From Clostridia bacterium (GTDB taxonomy: Bacteria; CBDUZB01; JAGLHV01), in contig DAOVVV010000005.1 of assembly GCA_030637025.1 (NCBI GenBank), forward strand, positions 61,608-81,607: a DNA stretch of 20,000 nucleotides, read 5' to 3'. A program made the translations under genes and the position numbers. Of this stretch, positions 962-20,000 are shown in pieces. Each line of letters begins with the position of its first letter. The first letter of the stretch is position 1. The notes under the pieces were generated by a model, which was not told the origin of the DNA, did not search any database, and worked only from the letters and a program-made list of their open reading frames with translations.

Positions 962-1007
962 AAAGAAGTAAATAACGAGCGGTCGTTTGGTATGCCAGGG
1001 GAGGATA

Positions 1008-3230: not shown

Positions 3231-5191
3231 TATTGACATTTATTAACAATTTTAAAATAATTCAAAAATTCATAAGCAATAAAATATTTTTGTTTATGCT
3301 GGTATTATATTTAATACTTGCCGGGTTATTGTTAAATCCGGACTTGCCTTTGGAAGGGGATAGCCCTATTTTTTTTAATCTGGCACAATCGATATCTTCC
3401 GGGCAAGGTTATAAAGATATTTATTTTCCCGGGAACCCTGTTCATGTTCAGTATCCTTATTGTTATCCCGGCTTATTAGCCCTGATTATTGTTTTATTTC
3501 CTAAAACTGTTGTGGGATTAAAATTACTTTCTATATTGTTTGGAGCAGCATCTTTAATAGCTATTCAAAAGCTTTTTTCAAATAGATATAAAACAGAGAG
3601 TATAAACCTTATTATTTTATTAACCTGCACTAATTTATGGTTTTTATCTTTCTCTGTAATACTTCTTCCGGAAATGCTCTATTTCTTTTTTTCTTTATTA
3701 ACCCTTATCACCGGCAGGGCATATATACGGCAGAAAAGTTTAGTTAATAGATATTTATGGATTCTTTTTGTTTGTTTAGGAGTTGTTTTTTATACAAAGA
3801 CAATAGGAATGACTTTATTTTTAGCGATTACAGTATATCTTTTTTTTATAGAGAAAAACCATAAAAAAGGGATTTTAATTTTGAGTTGGGAACTTTTTTT
3901 AGTTTTGTTTTGGATAAAATTTTTAGTTTTAGTGTCTGAACAATCTTCTCTGCCTATAATTTCCCAGAATTATATTATCCAGGTATTTTCCGATAATACT
4001 TTTTCTTTTTTGTCTAAGGTCAAGTTAACTCTAAATAACTTGTCCGGTTATTTCCACTCAATTTCTTCTTTGTTTTTACCGGGATATTTTCTGGGAGAGG
4101 ATACTTTTGAAGGAAAACGTTATTTTTGCCTTTTATATAATTTAATCGATGAAGTAAAGTTTTTTAATCCCCGTTCTTTATTAGTTTTTTCCAAAACAAT
4201 AATTATATTTATTGGAAGTATTACCTGTTTTGGTTTTTTGCGTCAGCTTAAAGATAAAAATTTGAACGAAATTTATGTGATTTGTTATTTGTTAGTTCTT
4301 TTATTTTCCCCTGAATTGTTTTATGCTTATAGCTGTAACCGGTATCTTTTAATGCTTTTTCCTTTTTTAATTTATTATTTTTTTTCCGGTATTTTATTAG
4401 TTCTAAATTTCAAAGGGAATGATGCTAAAGATAGAAAAAGGCGAAAATTTATTCGGAAAATCTGTTTTATCCTCACAGGTGTTTTGTTGGTAGTCAATTT
4501 AACCCCCGTTGCTTTTTGGATAAAAAACAATATGAGTTATGTGGTTAATTATAAATATTTATCCGTAAAAGAAAAAAAGTATTATCATTCTTTTTTGTTG
4601 TGGGATTTTTTTTCATCTGCTTGTTGGATAAAAGAAAATACCTCTCCCCAGTCAGTTATTATGCATTTTAGTCCGCCGGGATTTTATCTTTACAGTAAAC
4701 GCAAGACTGTTTTTTTTAACTACTTGCCTTATCACCCAAGAGGGACGGTTTCAGAAGAGATTAAATTAATTATAAAAGAAAAAGAAGTGGATTATGTAGT
4801 AGAAAGTTGCAAAATGCAGCGGGAAATTATTTATTGCTTAAATGATACATCAAAAGATTATGTTGTTGTGCCTTTAGTTAATCTTTCTAAAGAAATTATT
4901 TATAAAATAATTAATATTTCTCCCCAAGGAAAATTATTGAATAAAGAAGGGATTTATTGGTATAATGAAAAAAATTATGATCGGGCCATTATAAAGTTTG
5001 AAAGAAGCATAAAAATAAAACCAAATTTTTATACCTTTTATCAGTTGGGACGGTGTTACCAGGGAAAAAAGATGTTTAATCAGGCATTACAAATGTATAA
5101 AAAAGCGATATCTTTACAACCAAATTATGAAATTGCTAAGAGCAAGCAGGCATCAATATTAGATATTTTGAAAAAAACAGGTAATAAATAA
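3227..5191 (+). CDS. GT-C fold membrane glycosyltransferase with C-terminal TPRs, paralog 2 (shorter, one TPR block)
   Basis: TTG start overlaps the upstream TGA stop (TTGA), although the exact start is uncertain. Motifs LLLNPDLPLEGDSPIFFNLAQSISSGQGY...QYPYCYP, FYTKT and WIKENT. TPR FYQLGRCYQGKKMFNQALQMYKKAISLQP. Confidence 0.8.
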   Translation: MILTFINNFKIIQKFISNKIFLFMLVLYLILAGLLLNPDLPLEGDSPIFFNLAQSISSGQGYKDIYFPGNPVHVQYPYCYPGLLALIIVLFPKTVVGLKLLSILFGAASLIAIQKLFSNRYKTESINLIILLTCTNLWFLSFSVILLPEMLYFFFSLLTLITGRAYIRQKSLVNRYLWILFVCLGVVFYTKTIGMTLFLAITVYLFFIEKNHKKGILILSWELFLVLFWIKFLVLVSEQSSLPIISQNYIIQVFSDNTFSFLSKVKLTLNNLSGYFHSISSLFLPGYFLGEDTFEGKRYFCLLYNLIDEVKFFNPRSLLVFSKTIIIFIGSITCFGFLRQLKDKNLNEIYVICYLLVLLFSPELFYAYSCNRYLLMLFPFLIYYFFSGILLVLNFKGNDAKDRKRRKFIRKICFILTGVLLVVNLTPVAFWIKNNMSYVVNYKYLSVKEKKYYHSFLLWDFFSSACWIKENTSPQSVIMHFSPPGFYLYSKRKTVFFNYLPYHPRGTVSEEIKLIIKEKEVDYVVESCKMQREIIYCLNDTSKDYVVVPLVNLSKEIIYKIINISPQGKLLNKEGIYWYNEKNYDRAIIKFERSIKIKPNFYTFYQLGRCYQGKKMFNQALQMYKKAISLQPNYEIAKSKQASILDILKKTGNK

Positions 5192-5209
5192 AGAATAGGT
5201 TATTTTGCC

Positions 5210-5221
5210 GGGGGGGGGGGG
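5210..5221 (+). repeat. G12 homopolymer directly abutting the ATG of paralog 3
   Basis: Sequence reads ttttgcc-GGGGGGGGGGGG-atg. It is the longest G run seen in this AT-rich window. Confidence 0.95.
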
Positions 5222-7501
5222 ATGTTTATTGGGAATTTGTGTGGTAAGAGAAAGTTCTTTTTAGGCATTTTAATCGTATATATAACAATCTGCGGATTAC
5301 TATTAAATCCTGATCCCCCTTTAACTAATGATGGTCCGTATTATCTTCTGTTGTCCCAATCTATGGTTTATCACCAGGGATACCGGCATATCTTTCATCC
5401 CGCAGAAATGGTAGATGTAGAATATCCTCCTATTTATCCGTTATTGCTTGCTTTTATTTTAATAATTTTACCGAAAACCGTCGTCGGATTAAAATTCCTT
5501 TCGCTATTGTTTGGGGTAGCGTCGTTGATTATTATTTATTACTTTTTTGCTGATAAATATGAATATTTACCGGATTTGAAATTTTTCACTATTAAATTTA
5601 AAACCAAAATTTATAGTTTATCCTTTATTACTTATCCGCTATTGTTGCTTTTGCTTACCTTTAGCAATTTATGGTTTCTTGTTTTCTCTATAACGATTGC
5701 CCCGGAAGTTGTTTATCTTTTCTTTTCTCTCCTTTCACTTATTTTTTTGGAAAAATGGATAGATGAAGGTAATTATTTTAACCGGTATTTGCTTTTTACC
5801 GTTTTAAGCATAACAGTGAGTTTTTATATCAAAGCACTTGCTCTGGCATTAATTCTTTCCGGCAGCAGTTACCTTTTTGTCAGGAAAGACTATAAAAAAG
5901 GTTTTTTGTTTTTAATAACGACCGGTTTTGCAATTTTACCCTGGATAATAAGAAACAGGATAATAAATAAAACATCTCTGTCATTGGATTATATCGGACA
6001 GTTTTTAACCGGCCACCAATTAAATTTACTGGATATGGGTAAAACAATCTTTTTTAATCTTACTCATTATATTCATGCCGTCTTTACCCTTTTAATTCCC
6101 GGATATTTTCTGGGAAAGTCTGGTTTTCAGGGAGAGGAAGCTTTTTCTTTTTTATACAGTTTTTTGGGTAAAAAAGAATATTTTGATCCGCAATCGTTGA
6201 ATACTTTGACTCTTTTTATAACTTTACTTTTAAGTGTTATTATCGGAATAGGTTTTATCAAACAATTAAAGAAAAAGAAATTGCCGGAAGTATATGTTTT
6301 ATCTTATCTGTTTATTTTGTTTCTTTTTCCCAGAGGATTTTATATTAGTAGTTCCAACCGGTATTTACTTCCCTTGCTTCCTTTTATAGTACACTATTTC
6401 CTGAATGGAATTTTTTTGCTGGAAAGTTGGAGGTTAAAAGTTAAACAGCCTTGTTGTCTAAACTTACGGAGTAATTTAGTATGGATACTTTGTTTTATTT
6501 TGGTTGTTGCTAACCTGATTCCGGCTGCTTATATGATTAGGGGAAATATTTCTTATTTGGGCAATTACAAGTTCTTATCAATAGAGGAAAGAAAGGATTA
6601 TCATTCCAGATGGCTTCTCGATTATTTTACCCCGGCTGCCTGGATAAGAGAAAACACCCCGGTAAACAGTGTTGTTATGCATTGTTTTCCCCCGGCTTTT
6701 TATTTGAAGAGCAATCGAAAAAGTGTATTTTTTTTGCTTACCCTTCAGGGCCCCAGGCTGATAAAAATAAATCTGGATAAAATGAAAGTAATAGCGGATA
6801 GAATTAATAAATATAAAGTGGATTATTTAGTGGTAGGGCACCAGGCGGAGAGAGAAATTATTGGGTATTTAAAGCGGTACTCTGAAATATTTATGTTTGA
6901 GCCTTTAGCCGTATTTAAAACAGAAATGAAAAGGGTTGAGATTTACAAAGTTATTAAAACTAATGCTCAAATAAAAACATTGAATAGGCAGGGAATAAAT
7001 TATTATAAAAAAGGTAATTATAAGCAAGCGGTATCGAAATTTAAGGAGATTATCCAGCTGCAGCCCAATTGCAAGACTTATTTTAATTTAGGACAGTGTT
7101 ATGAAAAACAAGATCTTTCTAAAGGGGCCGGTGAAATGTATGCAAAAGCAATACAACTTGAACCTGCTTATAAAACCGCTAAAACCAAATTGTACATTAT
7201 TGAGGAAAAAGAAAAAATAGAGCAAAATCCGGTACATCCTGGCGGGTATGAAAATTTAGGTAGATTTTATCTGGAAGAGGGAGACTTAAATAAAGCGATA
7301 AAAAATTTAAACTATGCACTGCACTTAGGTGCTTATAATTCTTCGGTGCATTATAATTTAGGTATAGCTTATTTGAAAAAAAAAGAATATAAATCTGCTT
7401 TAGAAGAATTAAAAAAAAGTTTATCTTTGCAGCGAAATTTAGGAGATAAATACAGAATAAAACACTACATTAAGATTGCAAAAATGAAATTGCGATGGTA
7501 A
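5222..7501 (+). CDS. GT-C fold membrane glycosyltransferase with C-terminal TPRs, paralog 3
   Basis: Motifs LLLNPDPPLTNDGPYYLLLSQSMVYHQGY...EYPPIYP, PWIIRN, RYLLPLLP and WIRENTP. Two TPR blocks and tail KYRIKHYIKIAK. Confidence 0.8.
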   Translation: MFIGNLCGKRKFFLGILIVYITICGLLLNPDPPLTNDGPYYLLLSQSMVYHQGYRHIFHPAEMVDVEYPPIYPLLLAFILIILPKTVVGLKFLSLLFGVASLIIIYYFFADKYEYLPDLKFFTIKFKTKIYSLSFITYPLLLLLLTFSNLWFLVFSITIAPEVVYLFFSLLSLIFLEKWIDEGNYFNRYLLFTVLSITVSFYIKALALALILSGSSYLFVRKDYKKGFLFLITTGFAILPWIIRNRIINKTSLSLDYIGQFLTGHQLNLLDMGKTIFFNLTHYIHAVFTLLIPGYFLGKSGFQGEEAFSFLYSFLGKKEYFDPQSLNTLTLFITLLLSVIIGIGFIKQLKKKKLPEVYVLSYLFILFLFPRGFYISSSNRYLLPLLPFIVHYFLNGIFLLESWRLKVKQPCCLNLRSNLVWILCFILVVANLIPAAYMIRGNISYLGNYKFLSIEERKDYHSRWLLDYFTPAAWIRENTPVNSVVMHCFPPAFYLKSNRKSVFFLLTLQGPRLIKINLDKMKVIADRINKYKVDYLVVGHQAEREIIGYLKRYSEIFMFEPLAVFKTEMKRVEIYKVIKTNAQIKTLNRQGINYYKKGNYKQAVSKFKEIIQLQPNCKTYFNLGQCYEKQDLSKGAGEMYAKAIQLEPAYKTAKTKLYIIEEKEKIEQNPVHPGGYENLGRFYLEEGDLNKAIKNLNYALHLGAYNSSVHYNLGIAYLKKKEYKSALEELKKSLSLQRNLGDKYRIKHYIKIAKMKLRW

Positions 7502-7556
7502 AAGGGTTCTATAAATTTTTTTTAAAAAGATTAAAACCTAAAAAAGGCAAAAAAAT

Positions 7557-8270
7557 ATGAGACAAAAAATACTGATAGTTCCTGTTTATAATGAAGAAAA
7601 GATGGTGATAAAGACTCTTAATGAAGTTTTTTCCAGCGTAAATGCTATAATAATAATTAACGATGGTTCTACCGATTCTTCAGCGAAAAAAATTACCGAA
7701 TGGATAAAGGATAAAAGCAATATATATTTGATTTCTTCAAAAATCAATCAGGGGAAATCTCAGGCATTAAGAAAAGGATTTATTAAAATAGGTGAATTAC
7801 TCCGGGAAGGCAAAATAAATTCAGAGGACATTATTATTACCATAGATGCTGATGGCCAGCATTTAGGAGGGGATATGGATGTTATTTGCAATTATTTTGT
7901 CAAAGGAGATTATGATTTAGTCATAACCCGTAGAGATTTCGCAAAATACCCCCTGTTTAAAATAATAGGAAATAAGATATTATCCTTAACCGCTTCCTTG
8001 TTGAGCGGTATAAAGTATAACGACATAGAATGCGGTTTTAGACTTATGAAAGCTAAGATTATTCCTGAAATGATGAAATATTATACAGGTTTTAAATACA
8101 GCTGTGAACAGGAAATGGGAATAATTGCCGCCAGATTAAATTATAGAATTGATAATAATTATCTAATCAAGCCTCGTTTTTACCGTTCCCGGGGTACAAA
8201 AATTCCTGATGGGATAGTTAATGTTTTTTGGGGAATAATGGCCTTTATTAAGGTGAAATTAAAAAAATAA
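7557..8270 (+). CDS. GT2 family glycosyltransferase, DPM1/polyprenol-phosphate sugar synthase-like
   Basis: Motifs VPVYNEE, INDGSTD, NQGKSQA, the DxD motif IDADGQH and DIECGFR. 237 aa with no obvious TM segment. Confidence 0.9.
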   Translation: MRQKILIVPVYNEEKMVIKTLNEVFSSVNAIIIINDGSTDSSAKKITEWIKDKSNIYLISSKINQGKSQALRKGFIKIGELLREGKINSEDIIITIDADGQHLGGDMDVICNYFVKGDYDLVITRRDFAKYPLFKIIGNKILSLTASLLSGIKYNDIECGFRLMKAKIIPEMMKYYTGFKYSCEQEMGIIAARLNYRIDNNYLIKPRFYRSRGTKIPDGIVNVFWGIMAFIKVKLKK

Positions 8271-8284
8271 AAGAGAGGTCGAGG

Positions 8285-10543
8285 ATGTTATCTGTTTTTC
8301 TTAAGTTTCTGAGTAAAAATAAATATCTTTTATTTATTCTGGGCCTATTTGTTTTGATTAGCGGATTATTATTAAATCCTGATTTGCCCATGGAAAACGA
8401 TGAACCGTATTATTTTGTTCTGGCTAAATCTTTATCCCTGCAAAAGGGATATGTCCATCTTTATTATCCGGGAGAGGGACTTGTTGATGTGGAATATCCT
8501 CCTTTGTATCCGATTTGTTTAGCGTTAATTATGAAACTGGTTGAGTATCAAGTTGTTTTTTTAAAAATACTTTCTCTTCTTTTCGGCGGGGCTGCCTTAA
8601 TTGCTGTATATATCTTTTTTACTAGAAAAAATAAAACTTCGTTTTTACCGGAAACAAAACAGAGTTTTTACTTATGGCTTTTATTCTTTACAGCAACCAA
8701 TTGGTGGTTTCTTTCTTTTTCTGTAATAATTGCTCCGGAAATTGCTTATCTTTTTTTCTCACTGGCAGCTCTTTATTTTTTGGAAAAATATAATCAGCAA
8801 ACAACTTTAATTAATAAATATTTGTTTGGGGCAATTTTATTACTGATAATGACTTTTTATACTAAAACGCTGGGCTTAGCCCTTATTATCGCTGCGGTTA
8901 TCTATTTTTTGTGGATTGAAAGAAAGTATAAAAAGGGTTTGGTTTTAGGGGGTATATCTTTGGGATTAATTTCCCCCTGGTTATTAAAAAATAGCTTAAT
9001 TACTAATGCAGACAAAGTAATATCTCAAAATTACTTAAATCAATTTTTCTTTGGCTATGAAGGGAATTTATGGAATATTATAAAAACCGTTGGTTTGAAT
9101 ATTTTTAATTATGGTAAAGCTATTGCTCATTTGCTGCTTCCCGGTTATTTTATGGGAGAATCCATGTTTGAGGGTTTATCCTATTCCCCCTTTTTTTGTA
9201 GTTTAATGAATAATGACAGGTTATTTAAGCCGCAGGTTTTACCGGTGGTTTCTTTTTTTATTATTGTCTTTTTTTGCGGAATGACTATTTTTGGTTTTAT
9301 CAGGCAGTTAATCAAAAAAAAGAGTTTAATGGAGATATATATACTTTGTTATTTAGGAATTATTATGATTTTTCCTTCTTGTTTTTATATTAATGCGGGG
9401 AAGCGGTATTTAGTTTCTTTACTTCCTTTTATATTATATTATTTTTTCAGGGGTATTTTTTTTGTTGAAAAATGGAGATTAAAAATTCAGGAAGAATCTC
9501 TAAAGGCCGGAAATAATAAAAAAGGTTTTTTGTATTTTAGTAATTTGTGGGTAATAAGCGGAATTGTTTTGCTGTTGGGTAATTTAATTCCGGATTTTTG
9601 GTCGGTAAAAGGGAATATTTCTTATTTAGCTGATTATAAAGTTTCCTCGGAAAAAGAAAAAAGGAACTATCATTCTTTTTGGCTTAACGATTATTTTACA
9701 CTGGCTGAGTGGATAAAAAAAAATACTCCCCCGGATGCGGTTCTAATGCATTTTTTCCCGGCTGCTTTTTATCTGCATACTGAACGCAAAGTAACTTTTT
9801 TTGATAGGCTTCCTTATTATCCGGAAGAGAGAAATTTTAACGATATTAAAGCCGATATTGAAAAGAGAAAAGTTGGGTATATCATCACAGGGTCGTCTAA
9901 ACAGGAGGAAATAGTTTCCTGGTTAAACATAGAACTTAGTCAATATGTTTTTATTCCTATCGCCGAAATAGAAGTAAATAGAGTGTATAAAGCGTTTAAA
10001 GTAAACTCGTTGATTAAAGAAAAGTATAAACAGGGAGCATTTTGGTATAAAGAGGGAAAATATGATTTAGCTATAGCAGAATTCCGGAAAGCACAAGCTA
10101 TAGTATCTACTTTTGTGGGTTATTTTAATTTAGGAAGATGTTACGAAGAAAAAGGGGAAAGAGAAAAAGCACAAAAAATGTATAAGCAGGCAGTGGTTTT
10201 ACAACCCGATTTTAAGGTAGGCAAAATTAGAGCGGATATTTTGTTTTATCAGCAATTAATTGATGTTCAACCACACAATTATCAACATTATTATCAATTG
10301 GGAAAAAGTTTTCTGGAAAGTTACCAGTATGATAAAGCAATTGATAATTTTTCAGGGGCTTTAGCCCTTAATCCGTCTTTTTATCAGGTACACTATTTTT
10401 TAGGTTTATCCTATCTGGGAAATAAAGATTACCGGGAAGCAATAATGGAGTTTAAAAAAGCTTTAATTTTAACACCTGAAATCAAATATAAAACGAAACA
10501 CTATTTGAAAATTGCCCGCAAATTAAGAAAGAGAAATAAATAG
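8285..10543 (+). CDS. GT-C fold membrane glycosyltransferase with C-terminal TPRs, paralog 4
   Basis: SD-like GAGG elements upstream. Motifs LLLNPDLPMENDEPYYFVLAKSLSLQKGY...EYPPLYP, FYTKT and WIKKNTPPDA. Two TPR blocks and tail KYKTKHYLKIARK. Confidence 0.8.
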   Translation: MLSVFLKFLSKNKYLLFILGLFVLISGLLLNPDLPMENDEPYYFVLAKSLSLQKGYVHLYYPGEGLVDVEYPPLYPICLALIMKLVEYQVVFLKILSLLFGGAALIAVYIFFTRKNKTSFLPETKQSFYLWLLFFTATNWWFLSFSVIIAPEIAYLFFSLAALYFLEKYNQQTTLINKYLFGAILLLIMTFYTKTLGLALIIAAVIYFLWIERKYKKGLVLGGISLGLISPWLLKNSLITNADKVISQNYLNQFFFGYEGNLWNIIKTVGLNIFNYGKAIAHLLLPGYFMGESMFEGLSYSPFFCSLMNNDRLFKPQVLPVVSFFIIVFFCGMTIFGFIRQLIKKKSLMEIYILCYLGIIMIFPSCFYINAGKRYLVSLLPFILYYFFRGIFFVEKWRLKIQEESLKAGNNKKGFLYFSNLWVISGIVLLLGNLIPDFWSVKGNISYLADYKVSSEKEKRNYHSFWLNDYFTLAEWIKKNTPPDAVLMHFFPAAFYLHTERKVTFFDRLPYYPEERNFNDIKADIEKRKVGYIITGSSKQEEIVSWLNIELSQYVFIPIAEIEVNRVYKAFKVNSLIKEKYKQGAFWYKEGKYDLAIAEFRKAQAIVSTFVGYFNLGRCYEEKGEREKAQKMYKQAVVLQPDFKVGKIRADILFYQQLIDVQPHNYQHYYQLGKSFLESYQYDKAIDNFSGALALNPSFYQVHYFLGLSYLGNKDYREAIMEFKKALILTPEIKYKTKHYLKIARKLRKRNK

Positions 10544-10588
10544 GGTTTCTGAAGAAAAACTACGGATTAAAGGAAATTAATCTTAAAA

Positions 10589-11992
10589 ATGAAAAAAATA
10601 TTATTACTCAATCCTCCCGGAGACCGTCCTTACATTAGAGACTATTATTGCAGCCATGTTTCTAAAGGGGTTTATTATTGGCCGGGCTATGACTTGCTGG
10701 TATTAAGTGGAATTTTAAGCAAGGAGTATCGGGTAGAAGTGTTGGATGCAATTATTTCCAGGATGAGTTTTGAAGAATGTTTCAGCCGAATTAAGGAGAT
10801 GGATATAGATGTAATAATTTTTATTACAGGTTCTGTTTCCTGGAGAGAGGATTTTTCTTTTCTGGAAAAGGTCAAAAAAGAAAAAAAAGTTTTAATGATT
10901 GCCAGTGGTGATTTTCTTCTTTTCCAGGGCAGTAAAATTATGAGGCAATTTCCGTTTTTGGATGCTGTTATTTTGGATTTTACTACGCGGAACATTTTAG
11001 ACTTTCTTGGTGGAGAAGGAAATGAAAAAAAAGATAATCTTATTATCAGAAAAGGTGAAGATATAATCGAGGGAAATAAGATTACAATTAAGGAATTCGA
11101 AATACCCATTCCCCGGCATGAACTTTTTCCTTTAAATAAATATAGTTTACCTCATTTAAGAAAACATCCTTTTGCCAGTGTTCTGACTGCTTTTGGTTGT
11201 CCTTATCAATGTTTGTTTTGTCCTTTCCAGAGAATACCGTTTAAAACACGTAAAATTGAGAATATTTTAGAAGAGTTTACCTATATTAGTTCTTTAGGGA
11301 TTAAAGAAATATGGTTTAGGGACCAGACTTTTTTAGCTAACAAAGGACACAGTCTTAAATTGTGCAAAGAGATGATAGAAAAAAAATTTGCCTTTAGCTG
11401 GAGTTGTGAAACCAGGGTTGATTTGCTTGATGAGGAGACTTTAAAGGTGATGAAAGCTGCCGGTTGCCACACGGTAATGTTAGGGGTAGAAAGTGCCAGA
11501 CAGGATATATTAGATAGATATAAAAAGGGGATTAAAATAGACCGGATAAAGGAAGCTTTTGCTCTTTGTAAAAAATTAAAAATAAAAACATTGGCACATT
11601 TTATTATAGGATTGCCGGGTGAAGATGAAGAATCGCAAAGGGAATTGATTGATTTAGCTAAGCAAATTGATTGTGATTATGCTTCTTTTAATATTGCCAG
11701 TCCGCAAATAGGGACTACTTTTCGTGATCAAGCAATAAGTAAGGGGTGGATTTCCGAGAAAACGGATATTATGGATAGTTCCTGTTCGTATCCGCTTATT
11801 GAGACAAAAAGTTTATCTAAGGAAAAGGTGTGGATGTTTCATCAACAGGCAGTAAGGGAATTTTATATGCGTCCCCGTTTTTTATTAAATAGAATATGCC
11901 GGCTAAAATCTATAAAAGAAGGCATTATTTTACTAAAAGAGGGTATTTATTTTTTAAGAGAAATTTTTTTTGTCCAAAACCAAAAAAGATGA
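10589..11992 (+). CDS. B12-binding-domain radical SAM protein (class B methylase/BchE/HpnJ-like architecture)
   Basis: N-terminal KILLLNPP Rossmann-like B12-binding start. CxxxCxxC motif GCPYQCLFC (Cys codons span 11198-11221). Downstream motifs WSCETRVD, LGVESA and AHFIIGLPGE are typical of this family. Confidence 0.9.
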   Translation: MKKILLLNPPGDRPYIRDYYCSHVSKGVYYWPGYDLLVLSGILSKEYRVEVLDAIISRMSFEECFSRIKEMDIDVIIFITGSVSWREDFSFLEKVKKEKKVLMIASGDFLLFQGSKIMRQFPFLDAVILDFTTRNILDFLGGEGNEKKDNLIIRKGEDIIEGNKITIKEFEIPIPRHELFPLNKYSLPHLRKHPFASVLTAFGCPYQCLFCPFQRIPFKTRKIENILEEFTYISSLGIKEIWFRDQTFLANKGHSLKLCKEMIEKKFAFSWSCETRVDLLDEETLKVMKAAGCHTVMLGVESARQDILDRYKKGIKIDRIKEAFALCKKLKIKTLAHFIIGLPGEDEESQRELIDLAKQIDCDYASFNIASPQIGTTFRDQAISKGWISEKTDIMDSSCSYPLIETKSLSKEKVWMFHQQAVREFYMRPRFLLNRICRLKSIKEGIILLKEGIYFLREIFFVQNQKR

Positions 11993-12060: not shown

Positions 12061-12089
12061 TTGAGATTATTACCTTTTCGTGTTATATT
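12061..12089 (+). promoter_or_regulatory. Putative sigma70-type promoter with extended -10 for the sigma54-like/TCS operon
   Basis: TTGAGA (12061-66), a 17-nt spacer, then TATATT (12084-89), with TG at 12081-82. An A-rich UP-like region lies upstream, in an intergenic gap. Confidence 0.6.
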
Positions 12090-12148
12090 TGTAATGGTGA
12101 TTTTTTTTGCATAAACCACAAAAATACATATTAGTTTTGGATAAAAAA

Positions 12149-13246
12149 ATGGGTATTTTACAGAATGAGCTAAATCAAACTCTAAAAACACAGCTAAGAA
12201 ATAAACTAATAGCCGCAATGAAATTGACCAATTTTATAGATTTTCCCGAAATAGAATTTTCTAAATTTATTAAAAACGTGGAAAATGATCCATTATTTAG
12301 AAAATTAAAAATAAAAAGACTGATAAGTTATCAACGATTGGTTAAATCGGGCCTTTCATCTAATTTTTTGCAATTTAAGGAAGAAATTAGCGTGAATAAT
12401 AGTAAAGTAGATTTAGAATCCTTATTAGAAGGTAAAGAAAAAATAATTCAAATAATCAGGGAATTAGGAATAAATAAATTTAAGAAATATTTTTTGTACG
12501 ATGAAATTAATTTGTCTTTACAAGAAATATCCCGAAAAACAGGTTTAGCAATATCCAGGATTAATAAAATTAACGATTTAATTAATGAAATTTCTATTCA
12601 TAGCGAATTTCACCACCCGTCGTTGATAAGTTCAGGAGAAAAAAAACATTATTTTAAAATAGCATCGGTTGAAAAAACAGAAGAAAATTCTTTTGTTATA
12701 GGATATTTTGTGCCTGATTATGTTAGAGGAAAGTATTTAATAAATTACGAAAAAATAAAGGAAGTCCAAAAAAACAATTTTTTTTCCAGGGAAGAAATTG
12801 AAAGAATGGATAAACTGCTTAAAGATTTAAATTTAATTAATATCAGAAAAACAACAATTCATCGGATAATTCAGAGCGGCATAGAAATTCAGTCTGATTA
12901 TTTAGGTTCGGAAGATATTAAAAACTTAATATCATTTACCCAAAGGGATTTATCCCGTAAATTAAATATAAATTCTAGTTTAATTTGCCGCTTAATTGGT
13001 AATAAAAGTATTGTTATGCCATGGGGAGAGGAAAAATCCTTAAAAGATTTTTTTCCTAATAAGAAAAAGATTAGAAAAATATTAGTTAAAAAAATTATAA
13101 ATAATGAAAAAGAGCATTATACCGATGAAAAGATTAAAAATAAGTTAAAGAAAGAATTTGCAATAAACATTTCTCGTCGCTCAGTAAATGTTTATCGGAG
13201 AGAATTAGGACTATACAATGGTTATAAAAAAAATAAAAGGAAATGA
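12149..13246 (+). CDS. rpoN: Divergent, short sigma-54 (RpoN)-like sigma factor
   Basis: ATG 12149 is preferred to TTG 12107. Region-I-like Q/L-rich start (LQNELNQTLKTQLRNKL...VENDPLF). RKTTIHRIIQSGIEIQSDYL resembles RRQTLLKVAEAIVERQ. HTH TQRDLSRKLNINSSLICRLIGNKSIVMPWG...LKDFF. TDEKI motif and RpoN-box-like ISRRSVNVYRRELG (13169-13210). About 365 aa. Confidence 0.75.
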   Translation: MGILQNELNQTLKTQLRNKLIAAMKLTNFIDFPEIEFSKFIKNVENDPLFRKLKIKRLISYQRLVKSGLSSNFLQFKEEISVNNSKVDLESLLEGKEKIIQIIRELGINKFKKYFLYDEINLSLQEISRKTGLAISRINKINDLINEISIHSEFHHPSLISSGEKKHYFKIASVEKTEENSFVIGYFVPDYVRGKYLINYEKIKEVQKNNFFSREEIERMDKLLKDLNLINIRKTTIHRIIQSGIEIQSDYLGSEDIKNLISFTQRDLSRKLNINSSLICRLIGNKSIVMPWGEEKSLKDFFPNKKKIRKILVKKIINNEKEHYTDEKIKNKLKKEFAINISRRSVNVYRRELGLYNGYKKNKRK

Positions 13247-13296: not shown

Positions 13297-14961
13297 ATGG
13301 CCAGGGGATGTATATTAGTAGTTGATGATGATTTATCCGTGAGAAATTTATGTGTTGATATTTTAGAAAAGGAGGGATATAAGGTAGATGATGTGGAAAG
13401 CGGGGAACAGGCTTTGGAGTTTATTAATAGTAATAATTATAATTTATTGCTTTTAGATATTAATTTGCCGAATATTAACGGGGTGGAAGTTTTAAAACGG
13501 GTAAAGAAAAAACACCTTCAATGTGAAGTAATTATGATGACTGCTTATGGAAATGTTAAAACAGCAGTAGAATCAATGCGGTTAGGTGCATATGATTATA
13601 TTTCTAAACCATTTAATGTTAAGAAATTTGCTGTATTAATAAGTCATTGTTTGGAAAAACAAAATTTAGTTACGGAAGTAAGTGAATTAAAAGAGATTGC
13701 TGCGTTATATAATTTAAGTAAGGCAATGAGTTCGACAATGAATCCGGAGCAATTACTTAATTTGATTTTAAAATCAGCTTGCAAATCTTTGCAGGCAGAT
13801 GGGGGTTCATTAATATTATTAAACCAGCGAAAAAAAGAATTAACAGTCAGGAATTGTTTGACGGTATTTGACGGTAAGATATTTAAAAGAAAAGTGCGTG
13901 TTAATGAGAAAATTGCTGATTTAAAGGATAAGATGAGAGAACCGAGAATAGTGGCTGGAAGACAGAGTATGGTTGAACATTTTAAGTTTGAGGATGAGTT
14001 TGAAAATGTAAAATCAAGAATGGTAGTTCCTTTAATGATTAAAAATGATGTTATAGGAATAGTCAATTTAAAAAGAGTGAAAGAAGATAAGAAATTTGTT
14101 GAACAGGATATAAAACTGCTTTCTATTTTTGCTAAAGATGCTGCCCTGGCAATAGAAAATACTCGAGCTTATCAAGCATTAGAAGATGCAAAGATAAATT
14201 TGGAGGAAGATGTAAGAAGAAGAACGGAAGAACTTTTAAAAGCACAGGAACAATTGGTTCAATCTGAAAAAATGTCTGCCTTGGGCCAATTAGCAGCCGG
14301 GGTTGCTCATCAGTTACGTAATCCACTGTATGTTATTATGTCTGCAGTTCAGTTTTGCCTTTCTAAATTTAACCTTGAGAAAGAGGTTAAAAAGAATCTG
14401 GAAGTAATTTTACGAAATATAGAAAATGCTGATAAGGTAGTAAAAGAATTACTTGAATTTTCCCGGCCATCAAAAATTAATTTTTACGTTTTATCCATTA
14501 CAGAAGTTCTCAATAAAGTCTGTCAATTAATACAACCAAGATGTTCTAATCAGAATGTTCGGGTAGTTAAGCAATTTTGTTCTTCTTTGCCTGAATTAAA
14601 GATTGATAAAGATCATTTGGAACAAGCTTTTTTGAATTTAACAATCAATTCACTTCAGTCAATGCCGGAAGGAGGGGTACTTACCGTTAAAACATATCTT
14701 AGTTCCAAAAATAAAGAAATTATCGTTGAATTTATTGATACAGGTTGTGGGATTTCCGAAAAATGTGCTAAGGAAATATTTAATCCATTTTTTACTACTA
14801 AATCCGATGGGGTAGGTTTAGGTATGTCTGTTGCTCATCAAGTAGTTGTCGGCCAACACAAGGGAAGAATTGAAGTAGAAAGTGAGGAAAATAAAGGCAC
14901 TGTTATAAAAGTATATTTACCTTGTTTTTACCTAAATTTGGCAATGCCAAAATCTAAGTAA
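13297..14961 (+). CDS. Cytoplasmic hybrid sensor histidine kinase (REC-GAF-HisKA-HATPase)
   Basis: REC (ILVVDDD, LLDINLP, MMTAYG, YISKPF), GAF (MVVPLMIKNDVIGIVNL...FVEQDIKLLSIFAKDAALAIEN), H-box AAGVAHQLRNPL, N-box LEQAFLNLTINS, G1 DTGCGI, F-box FNPFFTTK and G2 GVGLGM. No TM segments. Confidence 0.93.
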   Translation: MARGCILVVDDDLSVRNLCVDILEKEGYKVDDVESGEQALEFINSNNYNLLLLDINLPNINGVEVLKRVKKKHLQCEVIMMTAYGNVKTAVESMRLGAYDYISKPFNVKKFAVLISHCLEKQNLVTEVSELKEIAALYNLSKAMSSTMNPEQLLNLILKSACKSLQADGGSLILLNQRKKELTVRNCLTVFDGKIFKRKVRVNEKIADLKDKMREPRIVAGRQSMVEHFKFEDEFENVKSRMVVPLMIKNDVIGIVNLKRVKEDKKFVEQDIKLLSIFAKDAALAIENTRAYQALEDAKINLEEDVRRRTEELLKAQEQLVQSEKMSALGQLAAGVAHQLRNPLYVIMSAVQFCLSKFNLEKEVKKNLEVILRNIENADKVVKELLEFSRPSKINFYVLSITEVLNKVCQLIQPRCSNQNVRVVKQFCSSLPELKIDKDHLEQAFLNLTINSLQSMPEGGVLTVKTYLSSKNKEIIVEFIDTGCGISEKCAKEIFNPFFTTKSDGVGLGMSVAHQVVVGQHKGRIEVESEENKGTVIKVYLPCFYLNLAMPKSK

Positions 14962-16396: not shown

Positions 16397-16501
16397 TTAA
16401 TAAATAAATAATTTATTATTCTAGTAACATTTTTATTTAAGACCTTTCCCTTAATTATTTCTGCAAAATCGCTTTTTCTTTCTTATTATCATTCCTGTGG
16501 A

Positions 16502-16641
16502 CAGACTATGTCATAACTCAGATTTTTATGTGGTAGCCGCAACCTTTCTTGTCTGACTCTGGGGGAAGGGTGCGTTATCGTCGGAGATTTTACGCAGGCT
16601 AAAGCCTGCGACTACCAAAAAGGGGATTATGAGACAGTCTG
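16502..16641. mobile_element. 140-bp non-autonomous MITE-like element with terminal inverted repeats and a 3-bp flanking direct repeat
   Basis: Left end CAGACTATGTCATAA versus reverse complement of the right end CAGACTGTCTCATAA (13/15 match). GGA on both sides (16499-501 and 16642-44). Markedly higher GC than the flanks. Confidence 0.7.
16531..16617. repeat. Inverted pair of GTAG-type REP-like palindromes (REPIN-like) inside the MITE
   Basis: TGGTAGCCGCA (16531-41) is inverted to TGCGACTACCA (16607-17) with 1 mismatch. Perfect hairpin CGCAGGCT-AA-AGCCTGCG at 16593-16610. Confidence 0.7.
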
Positions 16642-16779
16642 GGAAGCAGGAATCTATTGATATTTTAAGACATTATAGAAAGCAGAATGACTTTTCCAAA
16701 GTTTTATTTTGGTTAATATTTCCTTGTTAATTTAAGAGTTTTCTTTTTTTCTTCTGTTTTTATTTAAATTTTTCTATTT

Positions 16780-16795
16780 TGGCACAAAAATTGCA
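16780..16795 (+). promoter_or_regulatory. Sigma-54 (-24/-12) promoter
   Basis: TGGCACAAAAATTGCA has GG at 16781-82, exactly 10 nt, then GC at 16793-94. It matches TGGCACG-N4-TTGCW at all but one position and lies 60 nt upstream of the ATG at 16855. Confidence 0.85.
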
Positions 16796-16854: not shown

Positions 16855-18414
16855 ATGAACAAAATTTTAATAAGTCGAAAGAGTAATTATAGAGGAATAT
16901 TAATAATGATAATAATTACTATATTAACAATAGTTCCTAGTATATGGGCAGTTGATTATATTTCCGTTGGTAGTGGAAATTGGAATAATCCTGCTGTTTG
17001 GGACCAGGCCGGTTATCCTGATGTAGTAGAGGATACTGCTACTATTGCCAATGGGCATACAGTAAGGATTACTGCCGATCTTACCTGTGGTGCGGTGACT
17101 ATAAATAATGGGGGAGTGGTAAATCATACCGCATATACTAATCTGACTTGGATAATTCAGGGGGATATTTCGGTCAGTGGTACTTTGACCCTGGGACCAG
17201 GTGTAAATATCAAAATAGATTGTATTACTACCATGGGATTATACGGTATTATTGTGGAGTCGGGTGCGATTTTTAGTGCCAATGGTGGAAATAAACACTT
17301 GAATGATTGTGTAATTACGGCCTTAAACCCGGATTATAATACTTATATTTATTTAAAAGATGGTTCTCAAACTCTATTACAATATTGTAAAATAAGTGAA
17401 ATGGGAATTTTTGGGGCTCCTAAATATGGAATATATATTGAGAATGTTGATGGGAATATTCCTGGTGAAGGGATCCTTATAAAGGGTTGCATTATTAGCA
17501 ATAACTATAACTATGGAATTTATATGAGTGGATGTTCAAAAAACAATACGAATAACGGTAAAGGAATTATTGATACCGTTGTTGACGGTGATAGGGAAGG
17601 AATCTGGGTTACTAATTGTTCTTCTAATACATTTGAAGGGAATTATTGTTATAATAACAATTCAGGAACGGAAGCTGGTTCTGGTATTAATGTTTATGGT
17701 GGAAGTAATAATATTTTAAGCAATAATATTTGTTATAATAATCAAATAGCCGGGATTAGAATTGTAAACAGTAATAATAATATTTTAAATAATAATATTT
17801 GTTATGATCAATGGTATGTGACGGGGATTGATATTAGTGATAGTCATAATAATCAATTGATAAATAACATTACATATAATAATCCGTACGGTGTTTTTTT
17901 AAACGGGAGCAATAATAACACATTGACAGGAAATATAATTTATAGTAATTCTACTGGATTTTATGGCTATGGTAATGTAGGGAATGAACTTATAGATTGT
18001 AGTTTTGGTACTTTAGGAGAAAATACCCAGAGAGATATTTATTTAACTAATTTTGGTGCTTTCACACTTATTTTAAAAAATTGTCAATTATCTAGTACGA
18101 CTGAAGTAGATACTACGAATTTTAGTGTGGGAGGCTGGATTATTTCACAAAAACATGACCAGATACCAGGGTTAGTCAGGATTTGGGGTGATTATAATAT
18201 TCCTGCTGTTACAACGAACTGGCAATACGATACAGAATTATATTCTGGAAGTGGTGATGCCAATGTGCAAAAAAAGATAGAATTTTATTACACACCGATA
18301 GGGACAGAACTCATTGTAGAAAATGCAAAGACACTAAATATAACGGGGGGGTGCAGACCAATCAGAGGACTTTGTTTTATAGTGGGGATAGTACTTTCTG
18401 GGGTTTTATTGTGA
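16855..18414 (+). CDS. Large secreted/surface protein, N-terminal part (signal peptide, G8-like start, right-handed parallel beta-helix repeats); frameshifted near 18351
   Basis: SD GGGGAG then ATG 16855. Sec signal peptide ending IVPSIWA|VD. SGNWNNPAVW...ATIANGHTV start. PbH1/NosD-like repeats (GINVYGGSNNILSNNICYNN, GIRIVNSNNNILNNNICYD, GIDISDSHNNQLINNITYNN). The last about 20 codons after ITGG look out of frame. Confidence 0.8.
   Translation: MNKILISRKSNYRGILIMIIITILTIVPSIWAVDYISVGSGNWNNPAVWDQAGYPDVVEDTATIANGHTVRITADLTCGAVTINNGGVVNHTAYTNLTWIIQGDISVSGTLTLGPGVNIKIDCITTMGLYGIIVESGAIFSANGGNKHLNDCVITALNPDYNTYIYLKDGSQTLLQYCKISEMGIFGAPKYGIYIENVDGNIPGEGILIKGCIISNNYNYGIYMSGCSKNNTNNGKGIIDTVVDGDREGIWVTNCSSNTFEGNYCYNNNSGTEAGSGINVYGGSNNILSNNICYNNQIAGIRIVNSNNNILNNNICYDQWYVTGIDISDSHNNQLINNITYNNPYGVFLNGSNNNTLTGNIIYSNSTGFYGYGNVGNELIDCSFGTLGENTQRDIYLTNFGAFTLILKNCQLSSTTEVDTTNFSVGGWIISQKHDQIPGLVRIWGDYNIPAVTTNWQYDTELYSGSGDANVQKKIEFYYTPIGTELIVENAKTLNITGGCRPIRGLCFIVGIVLSGVLL
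18345..18351 (+). repeat. G7 homopolymer at the inferred frameshift
   Basis: Sequence ata acG GGG GGG tgc. One extra G gives ITGG-VQTNQRTLFYSGDSTFWGFIVNG and joins the two ORFs. Confidence 0.8.
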
Positions 18415-20000
18415 ATGGCATCATAAATTGTGATTATGCAAATTTTAGTAATTTGGATATAAGTGGCTTGAATGTTGCTAACAGTGCTACTGTTATCAAA
18501 CTTGACCATATCTCCTTTAACAATGTAGATAGTGGGGGTAGTCATCTAACGATGGATGGTATAGATTACAGCTTTGACGGATGTGTTTTTGATGATAGCG
18601 GAAACTATGATGTAACTGTAAATAACGATGCTGATTTAATTTTTATTAATTCCACCCGGGGCAACTTTACCGATAATTTTCTGGATGCAAACTCGTCTAT
18701 CCAGTGGGTTGAAGATAGTAGTACCAGATTTACCGATAGTGGTGGTGTAGACAGAACTTTTTATAGTATCCAAACAAATGAAATTTTTGTTACAGTCAAC
18801 GATAATGATGAAAATATGCACAATGGTTCACAGCAGCAGATAAGTGTAATTATATCTAATAGTAGTACCGGGGATGAGGAGATGCTTAATTTAATTGAGA
18901 CCGGAAATGATACCGGGATATTCAGAAATACAGTGGGACTTCCTGTAAAACTCAATTCTACAGCTACCAAGGGTAATTTTGAATTGGAAGCATTGGGTAC
19001 AGAAATGGTTAGTGTAACCTATATTGACGGAAACGATTCAGGGGATACTTCTAATGATGCTGTCAGAATTTATCCTAAAGAGCCGGTTGTAGTATTAATG
19101 GAACCAAATGAAGGAGCAGTTGGCTTGTTGCCGGACAGTTTTGTTAGAGTAGGATTTAGCAAGGAAATGGATAAAACCTCTGTAGAAGCAGCAATGAGTT
19201 TGAAGGTAGTGAGAGATAAAGATGGACAGGTTATAAATGAGTTGGTAAGCGGAGTATTTAATTGGGAAAATGATACTACTGTTATTTTTCAACCTAATGA
19301 ACCATTGAATAAAAATTATACTTATCAGGTAGTTGTTTTAACTGATGCACAGGATGCAAGCGGTAATTCTCTCCCCCACAGCAAAGAGTGGAAATTTACT
19401 ACCATAATGGAGCATACAGTTATTAATACTGTAGTGGGAGAAGATGAAAACACGGAAGTAGGTTTATCAGCTAATGCTTTACCGGAAGATGGATGTATTA
19501 AGATTAGTTTAGAGTCAACAGATCAAGAGGGAATTATTCAGGCAGAGAGTAAACTGGAAAGAATAGGAAATAATTTACAGTATCCCATTACCGGAACAAT
19601 GCGTGAATTGAATGCGTATGACACTAATGGTAATTTATATAATGTAACTTTTAATGCAGCAGTAAATTTAACTATTCCTTATTCGGATAATGATAATGAC
19701 GGAATTGTTGACGGCACCTTTCCTCTGGTAAGGGAAAAAACTTTGGCTATACATTATTTAGATGAAGATAATAATTTATGGGTCAGGATACCCGGTTCAA
19801 CAGTGGATACAGAACGAAATGTAGTCACAGCTAAAGTATTGCATTTTTCTACTTTTGTGTTAATGGGAGCAAATGATACTAACTTAACCGGTGCCTATGC
19901 CTTTCCTGTTCCGTTCAGGGCATATCAAGGGCATAATCAGATTACCTTTACCGGACTTTCTTCTCAGGCCACGATAAAAATATTTACCATTAGCGGTGAG
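18351..20000 (+). CDS. C-terminal continuation of the large secreted protein (not in the ORF track), 3'-truncated: ETGxxTGxF domain, Big_5-like Ig domain, DxDxDG loop, HFS motif, T9SS-CTD/FlgD-Ig-like tail
   Basis: Hand translation gives 550 codons with no stop from 18351 to 20000; the previous stop in this frame is TGA 18255-57. Motifs: ETGNDTGIF (18897-18923), PVVVLMEPNEGA...FSKEMDKTSV...PNEPLNKNYTYQV...DASGNSL...WKFTT (19083-19403), DNDNDGIVDG (19686-19715), LHFSTFVLM (His at 19842) and AYAFPVPF...ATIKIFTISGE (19893-20000). Confidence 0.88.
   Translation, partial: MQTNQRTLFYSGDSTFWGFIVNGIINCDYANFSNLDISGLNVANSATVIKLDHISFNNVDSGGSHLTMDGIDYSFDGCVFDDSGNYDVTVNNDADLIFINSTRGNFTDNFLDANSSIQWVEDSSTRFTDSGGVDRTFYSIQTNEIFVTVNDNDENMHNGSQQQISVIISNSSTGDEEMLNLIETGNDTGIFRNTVGLPVKLNSTATKGNFELEALGTEMVSVTYIDGNDSGDTSNDAVRIYPKEPVVVLMEPNEGAVGLLPDSFVRVGFSKEMDKTSVEAAMSLKVVRDKDGQVINELVSGVFNWENDTTVIFQPNEPLNKNYTYQVVVLTDAQDASGNSLPHSKEWKFTTIMEHTVINTVVGEDENTEVGLSANALPEDGCIKISLESTDQEGIIQAESKLERIGNNLQYPITGTMRELNAYDTNGNLYNVTFNAAVNLTIPYSDNDNDGIVDGTFPLVREKTLAIHYLDEDNNLWVRIPGSTVDTERNVVTAKVLHFSTFVLMGANDTNLTGAYAFPVPFRAYQGHNQITFTGLSSQATIKIFTISGE

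Follow-up and report, generated by a model that had tools for sequence, protein, structure and literature searches.

Among bacterial sigma factors, sigma-54 alone is unrelated to sigma-70, and the structural work on its mechanism has used proteins of ∼400 to 480 amino acids (aa) whose core-binding domain (CBD), made of a four-helix part and a three-helix part, plugs the RNA exit channel. Here we describe a shorter relative, encoded at positions 12149 to 13246 of a 20,000-nucleotide stretch (the window) of contig DAOVVV010000005.1 from a Clostridia bacterium. The product is a sigma-54 homologue, and it is quite probably a functional minimal sigma-54 that is the working sigma-54 of its host.

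The closest well-described systems differ from this locus in instructive ways. The window protein resembles canonical sigma-54 of Escherichia coli and Klebsiella (477 aa; PDB 5NWT, 7QWP, and 8F1J) in the apparent order of a Region I-like segment, a CBD-like module, beta linker, extra-long helix (ELH) with helix-turn-helix (HTH), and RpoN domain, in the arginines of the RpoN box and HTH, in a predicted partner, a bacterial enhancer-binding protein (bEBP) with a GAFTGA loop, and in predicted promoters of the TGGCAC-N5-TTGCW type. However, it is ∼110 residues shorter, lacks the acidic Region II, appears to hold one CBD module instead of two, reads SRRSVNVYR instead of ARRTVAKYR in the RpoN box and NSSLICR instead of HESTVSR in the HTH, lies on a separate long branch, and falls below the cut-off of the TIGR02395 family. 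Aquifex aeolicus sigmaN (5UI5 and 2O8K), which we take to be 398 aa long and without acidic Region II, is likewise compact and is the best PDB sequence match, with an alignment that reaches back to profile position 165. In the crystallized Aquifex chain (342 residues, no Region I), 139 residues precede the point aligned with window residue ∼165, whereas the window protein has ∼112 residues between the end of Region I and that point, a difference that fits the absence of one CBD module from the window protein. Two sigma-54 genes in differing neighborhoods are also reported as RpoN1/RpoN2 (Xanthomonas and Ralstonia) and RpoNc/RpoNp (Bradyrhizobium). The pair in the window genome consists of a surface-protein/two-component locus and a glnA/GAF-ANTAR locus and, unlike in those genomes, both copies are of the short type and no canonical copy accompanies them.

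Architecture of the compact protein

An earlier note on this DNA had described a sigma-54-like protein of ∼365 aa, shorter than typical RpoN, and the length comparison holds: the 27 canonical sigma-54 proteins that form our reference alignment, taken from unrelated sampled genomes, measure 400 to 528 aa. Pfam assigned Sigma54_DBD to the 365-aa protein as its only domain (57.1 bits, E of 2.4e-15; cut-off, 22.8). The NCBIfam rpoN equivalog TIGR02395 scored 65.3 bits, below its cut-off of 277.35, and covered only model positions 259 to 430 of 434. A profile of 49 family members matched Aquifex sigmaN in the PDB (5ui5, E of 7.9e-24) and E. coli sigma-54 (E of about 5e-19), and hhalign against the 27 canonical proteins placed residues 115 to 365 on residues 221 to 478 of a 478-aa canonical protein (probability, 99.9%; E of 5.7e-34).

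Structure prediction for the protein alone, as proposed in the earlier note, gave a concordant result. An AlphaFold2 model built on the 49-member family alignment (pLDDT, 79; pTM, 0.76) was searched with Foldseek, and all 24 PDB matches at an E of ≤0.001 were sigma-54 chains. VIA structural alignment superposed model residues 16 to 365 on residues 12 to 477 of E. coli sigma-54 (8f1j_M; Z of 14.8 over 232 residues); with PDB structures in which Region I is unresolved, the alignment begins at model residue ∼164. The C-terminal portion (model residues 164 to 362) aligned with E. coli sigma-54 residues 268 to 474 at Z of 10 to 11.7 and includes a 34-residue extra-long helix (residues 214 to 247) followed by the HTH. 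The RpoN domain was recovered against its Aquifex counterpart (2o8k) by phmmer (E of 0.0047) and by VIA (Z of 7.8; root mean square deviation of 2.9 over 59 residues).

At the N terminus, the Region I-like segment by itself aligned with canonical Region I by hhalign (E of 6e-5; probability, 65%), compared with an E of 0.008 for a reversed control, and the first 112 residues were collinear with canonical residues 1 to 139, i.e., Region I and the first CBD helix (E of 5.4e-5; probability, 67%). In VIA, the Region I-like part of the model was superposed from residue 16 (residues 1 to 3 in some rows) onto E. coli sigma-54 from residue 12 (residues 5 to 7).

The acidic Region II, which the earlier note could not discern, is absent. 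In its place is a 35-residue linker with 3 acidic (D plus E) and 7 basic (K plus R) residues, compared with 10 to 26 acidic residues in the 60-residue stretch that follows Region I of canonical sigma-54 (26 proteins). In the model, the linker contains strands at residues 59 to 62 and 67 to 69 and is disordered at residues 75 to 87. Region II is described as poorly conserved in the relevant passage of PMC7057263 and thus is not strictly defining for the family. Passages of that paper and of PMC10786286 thread Region II through the cleft and place the canonical CBD at the RNA exit, with contacts to the beta flap, beta' zinc finger, and C-terminal domain of alpha (alpha-CTD).

The CBD was hard to recognize, as the same note had remarked, and became visible only in profile-profile comparison. 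Segment 86 to 168 of the family aligned with the first half of the canonical CBD (hhalign E of 1.6e-5; probability, 79%) and with the second half (E of 1.2e-4; probability, 56%). The two canonical halves also align with each other (E of 1.1e-8; probability, 95.6%; 67 columns); the Pfam Sigma54_CBD model spans 185 positions. We interpret the canonical CBD as the product of a tandem duplication of a helical module of ∼75 residues, of which the short proteins would keep one. On this view, the missing CBD module and the missing acidic Region II together account for the ∼110-residue shortfall. The order of a Region I-like segment, a single CBD-like module, ELH-HTH, and RpoN domain thus appears to be preserved.

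An alternative is that the protein is a stand-alone DNA-binding regulator that arose from sigma-54 and acts independently of core binding and bEBPs. The strong scores are confined to the DNA-binding half, and NCBI names some family members "winged helix-turn-helix transcriptional regulator" or "hypothetical protein"; IMG-style annotation already calls some members sigma-54. However, the N-terminal half is conserved in the family and carries Region I-like and CBD-like signatures in canonical order, the model matches the sigma-54 fold along its whole length, from the Region I-like segment through the RpoN domain, and a stand-alone regulator would leave the bEBPs of the clade's genomes without a partner. 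We therefore regard such a regulator as improbable.

The short clade and its host genomes

From 5.8 billion proteins, a database search recovered 105 relatives (331 to 400 aa), each with PF04552 as the sole domain on record. Most are unnamed or are called "hypothetical," "RNA polymerase sigma-54 factor," or "sigma54-like," and those with a named organism come from Dehalococcoidia, Aerophobetes, and unclassified bacteria. When 1.84 billion cluster representatives (50% identity) were searched exhaustively with the family profile, 356 proteins matched at an E of ≤1e-30; nearly all of the best 150 of these matched across almost the whole profile and were ∼330 to 420 aa long. At an E of ≤1e-10 the same search found 7,953 proteins, and most of the additional ones are taken to be canonical sigma-54 proteins that match through their C-terminal half alone. 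The 49 aligned members of the short clade measure 343 to 400 aa.

In a quick IQ-TREE phylogeny of the shared C-terminal ∼255 residues, 52 short proteins and 27 canonical proteins were split by one branch with SH-aLRT support of 100 and a length of ∼1.5 changes per column; the tree is unrooted, and the choice of the short rows by their resemblance to the query in part builds in the split. The shortest canonical proteins (400 to 418 aa) grouped with the canonical set and matched the Pfam CBD model. On these sequence comparisons, the short proteins form a distinct and well-populated subfamily of sigma-54. No description of a short sigma-54 clade or of an internal duplication in the CBD was found in a search of the full-text literature that largely excluded subscription journals; this is no proof of novelty but supports the suggestion of an undescribed subfamily. 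The note had also considered that the protein might nest among canonical RpoN proteins with the same substitutions; the substitutions are indeed common in its relatives, but those relatives are the short clade and not canonical RpoN. What is new here is the short clade with half a CBD, whereas the sigma-54 kind is known and some members already carry that annotation. Among congeners the gene has a dN/dS of 0.18 to 0.24, indicating purifying selection, and this, together with the motifs, the Pfam match, and the family, marks it as a real gene and not a chance open reading frame (ORF).

The apparent internal duplication of the canonical CBD bears on how the sigma-54 family arose. It is conceivable but doubtful that the short clade represents an ancestral, preduplication sigma-54 and that the canonical CBD was duplicated later; a later loss of one module is no less likely, and the unrooted tree accommodates both. 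If a single module were ancestral, one module would suffice for core binding and enhancer-dependent activation. The clade would then be a minimal sigma-54 provided by nature, and it would give a point of entry to the unexplained origin of the family.

Next, the genomes that encode these proteins were compared. The window genome (2.36 Mb, 77 contigs, 97.8% complete) has two ORFs with Sigma54_DBD, both short: the gene at 12149 and a 361-aa paralogue on contig C11 that is 42% identical to it. Of 401 sampled genomes (348 genera), 7 (4 genera) carry the short clade. Within a set of 41 genomes (the window genome, 3 congeners, and 37 from elsewhere in the domain), 5 have full-length short-clade members; a Pfam CBD match was found in none of these 5 and in 29 of the 36 others. 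Each of the seven short-clade genomes encodes one to four bEBPs with a full-length Sigma54_activat domain, and a loose-threshold search of G000 to G003 and G040 gave no Sigma54_DBD-like matches beyond the short-clade ORFs. The seven are drafts (86 to 97.8% complete). They include kin that are not independent (∼3 lineages), so that the pattern is suggestive and not a formal test. The short form thus appears to be the only sigma-54 evident in its host genomes. The tree was initially read as placing the two paralogues of the window genome apart, a claim dropped after the approximately unbiased (AU) test did not reject sister status (P of 0.565). As a side observation, the sampled relatives of the genus are the three congeners and otherwise genomes sharing domain rank only, and the genus may stand alone at high rank.

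These genome contents also bear on the decoy or competitor proposed in the earlier note. Such a protein would occupy -24/-12 promoters, or the activator, but would not bind core productively, and it would thereby repress or titrate sigma-54-dependent transcription. A CBD that is about halved and unrecognized by Pfam would suit such a role, as would two paralogues in one genome, one of which could antagonize the other. However, no canonical RpoN is detectable in any of the seven clade genomes, while true bEBPs, the one in the window with GAFTGA, persist in all seven; genomes with a single short copy (G002, G208, and G359) keep bEBPs or conserved promoters; and we know of no role for bEBPs without sigma-54. 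A decoy is accordingly very unlikely. Equally remote is an accessory role, in which a canonical rpoN is missing from the assemblies and the short protein is a specialized second sigma-54 for this locus only: all of the genomes are drafts and the window assembly seems to lack bEBPs that are present in a congener, but rpoN would then have escaped all seven of the assemblies, from at least three lineages, while 29 of 36 other genomes do show a CBD.

Promoters, DNA-reading motifs, and a proposed mechanism

A predicted -24/-12 promoter, TGGCACAAAAATTGCA, lies downstream of the sigma, kinase, and activator genes and ends 59 nucleotides (nt) before the ATG at 16855, which has a good ribosome-binding site. 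It is the sole 11/11 match to TGGCAC-N5-TTGCA in the genome. In the congeners (L051, L052, and L063), the orthologous site is kept as TGGCATAAAAATTGC and is the longest conserved block, with diverged flanks; in G003, the orthologue of the beta-helix gene likewise has the orthologous promoter in front of it. Separately, the segment ∼45 to 70 nt upstream of the -24 element (16708 to 16735) contains a repeated hexamer pair, TTAATA-N6-TGTTAA, which in congener L052 is a perfect inverted repeat, TTGATA-N6-TATCAA (by eye, three-sequence alignment). This pair may be a binding site for the bEBP.

In five other short-clade genomes, TGGCAY-N5-TTGCW had 17 matches compared with 7 for a reversed control pattern. 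Ten were intragenic with arbitrary spacers and seven were intergenic, six of the latter lying 31 to 102 nt upstream of an ORF on the same strand. The seventh (G040:C16) overlaps both the stop codon of a sigma-54-like gene, whose last codons and stop (ATG GCA TAA) contain the TGGCA, and the nominal start of an operon for a PhnD-like protein, a kinase, and a bEBP, and the site appears to drive this operon. The sigma-54-like gene may therefore act in a positive loop on the kinase and activator of its own locus. Sites at G001:C7 and G359:C192 are just downstream of bEBP genes, and those at G001:C161 and G003:C335 are orthologues of the window site. Another, TGGCATAAATTTTGCA (L073, G040:C14:15500-15515), is 37 nt upstream of a flagellar rod gene of the FlgE/F/G family; the second short sigma-54 gene of G040 stands at the end of a fliR-flhB-flhA-fliA-like cluster.

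P-II and glutamine synthetase genes are classical sigma-54 targets. On contig C4 of the window genome, TGGCAATATAATTGCA precedes a P-II gene and TGGCAACCAAATTGCG precedes a second glnA (L082:918-933 and L082:4438-4452). These are the next-best intergenic candidates of the genome, and both are conserved in all three congeners. The leader of this glnA also contains a conserved 15-bp hairpin (RNA fold z of -6.2), which could be the target of an ANTAR regulator; comparison of the leader with Rfam gave sub-threshold, chance-level matches only.

The identical 15-mer TGGCATAAAAATTGC, including its A5 spacer, adjoins sigma-54-like or bEBP genes in lineages that share domain rank only with the genus of the window (L076 at G040:C16:6798-6813, L077 at G359:C192:5974-5989, L068, L072, and L075). 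Reading of the shared spacer, for example by way of A-tract geometry, is one possible cause; horizontal transfer of the whole module is another. Taken from these sequences, the cognate sites appear to be of the canonical TGGCAC-N5-TTGCW type.

The altered motifs reported in the earlier note were both read in the protein, NSSLICR at residues 275 to 281 (12971 to 12991) and SRRSVNVYR at residues 342 to 350 (13172 to 13198), the latter differing from the canonical motif at four of nine positions. The family consensus of the RpoN box is ISRRSVA..R, with R344 and R350 invariant; S342, R343, and S345 are each found in at least 90% of members. For the HTH the consensus is PS.ISRAI, in which R281 does not vary, and the window HTH departs from its own family in small ways, e.g., C280. 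In the section of a 2025 study that treats the -24 element (PMC12096077), R455 and R456 of E. coli sigma-54 recognize it base specifically and substitutions of R456 re-target the promoter; both base-reading arginines are present in the window protein. The short-clade members on G040 contig C16 and in G359 carry the canonical ARRTVAKYR and yet adjoin the same TGGCATAAAAATTGC as the SRRSV-type proteins. Since the two types share this site, the arginines are kept, and the promoters are of canonical type, we find no evidence for the shifted promoter specificity that the note had suggested.

These comparisons establish homology, architecture, genomic co-occurrence, and promoter conservation; from them we infer how the protein would bind core, depend on its activator, and find its targets. 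The compact sigma-54 would bind core RNA polymerase (RNAP) through its single CBD module and Region I/ELH; its ELH-HTH would read the -12 element and its RpoN domain the GG of the -24 element, and Region I would hold the closed complex until it is remodeled by the activator. The gene is probably cotranscribed with those for the REC-GAF histidine kinase and the NtrC-type GAFTGA activator, the latter encoded two genes downstream, which the kinase would phosphorylate. Using ATP, the activator would then open the closed complex of RNAP and sigma-54 at the window promoter, and the operon for the secreted beta-helix and Ig-like surface proteins would be switched on. Together, the two paralogues may serve a small, classical sigma-54 regulon comprising the cell exterior and nitrogen assimilation. 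This tie to the cell exterior agrees with the theme of Francke et al. 2011 (PMC3162934).

Several points weigh against a working sigma-54. (i) Neither Sigma54_AID nor Sigma54_CBD of Pfam matched the 365-aa protein, so that of the three Pfam domains named in the earlier note only the DNA-binding one was recovered, and neither CBD nor AID is among the 25 commonest Pfam families in the 49 members. (ii) In the window genome the Pfam CBD and AID models had no matches, and the Pfam CBD model had none in any of the seven short-clade genomes. (iii) Homology of the N-terminal 114 residues draws on moderate profile scores (probability, 65 to 79%) and on the global structural alignment. (iv) A separate AlphaFold2 model of residues 1 to 166 (nine-sequence alignment) reached a pLDDT of 52, and with this poor model VIA returned generic three-helix or homeodomain-like matches (best Z of 5.1) and no sigma-54 CBD among its best 50 rows; because the model is poor, we regard this fold search as uninformative. 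(v) The E. coli region that has no counterpart here overlaps residues 120 to 215, which we take to be the minimal core-binding fragment. (vi) The window assembly has one full-length bEBP for two sigma-54 paralogues, and its P-II and glnA sites have no assigned activator; a congener has three bEBPs, of which one is encoded on the same contig as the P-II and glnA sites. (vii) TGGCAC-N5-TTGC occurs twice in the genome compared with ∼1.3 occurrences expected by our own estimate from base composition; because this count is near expectation, the weight of the window promoter comes from its position and conservation.

If the proteins are working sigma-54 factors, a clade that is natural, diverse, and under selection, with half a CBD and no acidic Region II, would define a minimal functional sigma-54 and would provide a test of which contacts of the CBD (to beta flap, beta' zinc finger, and alpha-CTD) are essential. 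A short sigma-54 could also be a smaller subject for structural work. With NCBI-style annotation mostly "hypothetical," enhancer-dependent regulation would be missed in uncultured Dehalococcoidia, Aerophobetes, and unclassified bacteria.

Gene neighborhoods and other features of the window

Features of the compact sigma-54 gene and its surroundings in the window
Feature	Position	Strand	Basis
Sigma-70-like promoter candidate, TTGAGA-17-TATATT with TG before the -10	12061..12089	+	Consensus scan, 10/12 matches
Compact sigma-54 gene	12149..13246	+	365 codons plus stop
Region I-like N terminus, residues 1-53, two helices, ENDPLF motif	12149..12307	+	hhalign, structural alignment
Short basic linker in place of acidic Region II, residues 54-88, predicted beta-hairpin	12308..12412	+	Model, composition
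Putative single CBD module, residues 89-165, five helices, LGxxKFKxYFL motif	12413..12643	+	hhalign
Beta region, extra-long helix, and HTH (-12 reading), including NSSLICR at 12971-12991	12644..13054	+	Pfam Sigma54_DBD, VIA
RpoN domain (-24 reading), RpoN box SRRSVNVYR at 13172-13198	13055..13243	+	phmmer, VIA
Hybrid sensor kinase, REC-GAF-HisKA-HATPase	13297..14961	+	Pfam
NtrC-type bEBP with REC, sigma-54 interaction AAA+ domain, Fis-type HTH, and GAFTGA loop	14984..16363	+	Sigma54_activat, 229 bits
Predicted -24/-12 promoter TGGCACAAAAATTGCA	16780..16795	+	11/11 match to TGGCAC-N5-TTGCA
First predicted target gene, secreted NosD-like protein (right-handed beta-helix) with N-terminal signal-like segment	16855..18414	+	Pfam Beta_helix, NosD
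Second predicted target gene, surface protein with Big_5 domain, cut by the window end	18351..20000	+	Pfam Big_5

The start of the sigma-54 gene is likely the ATG at 12149. An alternative upstream TTG at 12107, 14 codons before the ATG, would give a 379-aa protein; the 365-aa homologues share the MG.. start position of the 12149 ORF, and in the congeners the frame opens just 5 codons before this ATG. The upstream sigma-70-like candidate is weak evidence, since 27 such sites were found in the scanned region and 22.7 were expected from shuffles. In the bEBP, EKGAFTGA is readable in the translation. Cotranscription of the two predicted target genes is inferred from their position only.

A locus search with the single protein returned three congeneric loci only. 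Across the wider family, the short gene was found in several contexts. On contig C11 of the window genome, the paralogue locus (L062:853-5882) comprises glnA, a GAF-ANTAR regulator, the 361-aa sigma-54-like gene, and a GAF histidine kinase, with no bEBP nearby; upstream of this glnA, inspection by eye showed a sigma-70-type promoter and no -24/-12 site. One of the two G040 copies is followed by genes for a PhnD-like/TPR protein, an sCache-HAMP kinase, and a REC-bEBP, and the other lies with fliR, flhB, flhA, and a gene for a FliA-like sigma-70 factor. P-II and glutamate dehydrogenase genes adjoin the short-clade gene of G359, and that of G208 has no telling neighbors. Judged by gene content, these settings (two-component/bEBP, flagellar export, glnA, and P-II/glutamate dehydrogenase) appear typical of sigma-54.

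An Rfam scan of the window found no family at its gathering score. The spacer between the bEBP gene and the promoter contains a G+C-richer insert (16460 to 16680), a dispersed repeat that possibly resembles a miniature inverted-repeat transposable element. By blastn, dozens of partial copies were found on many contigs, with 80 to 100% identity over 25 to 170 nt, one of them just downstream of the paralogue's kinase gene on C11. The congeners lack the insert at this position, and their spacer is ∼175 nt compared with ∼417 nt in the window.

Directly upstream of the sigma-54 gene, the segment from 987 to 11992 encodes four paralogous proteins of ∼650 to 760 aa with C-terminal TPR domains and weak GT-C-, PMT_2-, or LIC_10190-like N-terminal membrane parts. 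These are followed by a GT2 glycosyltransferase and a B12-binding radical SAM protein (HpnJ-like, below the cut-off), and the genes may together form a surface glycosylation cluster.

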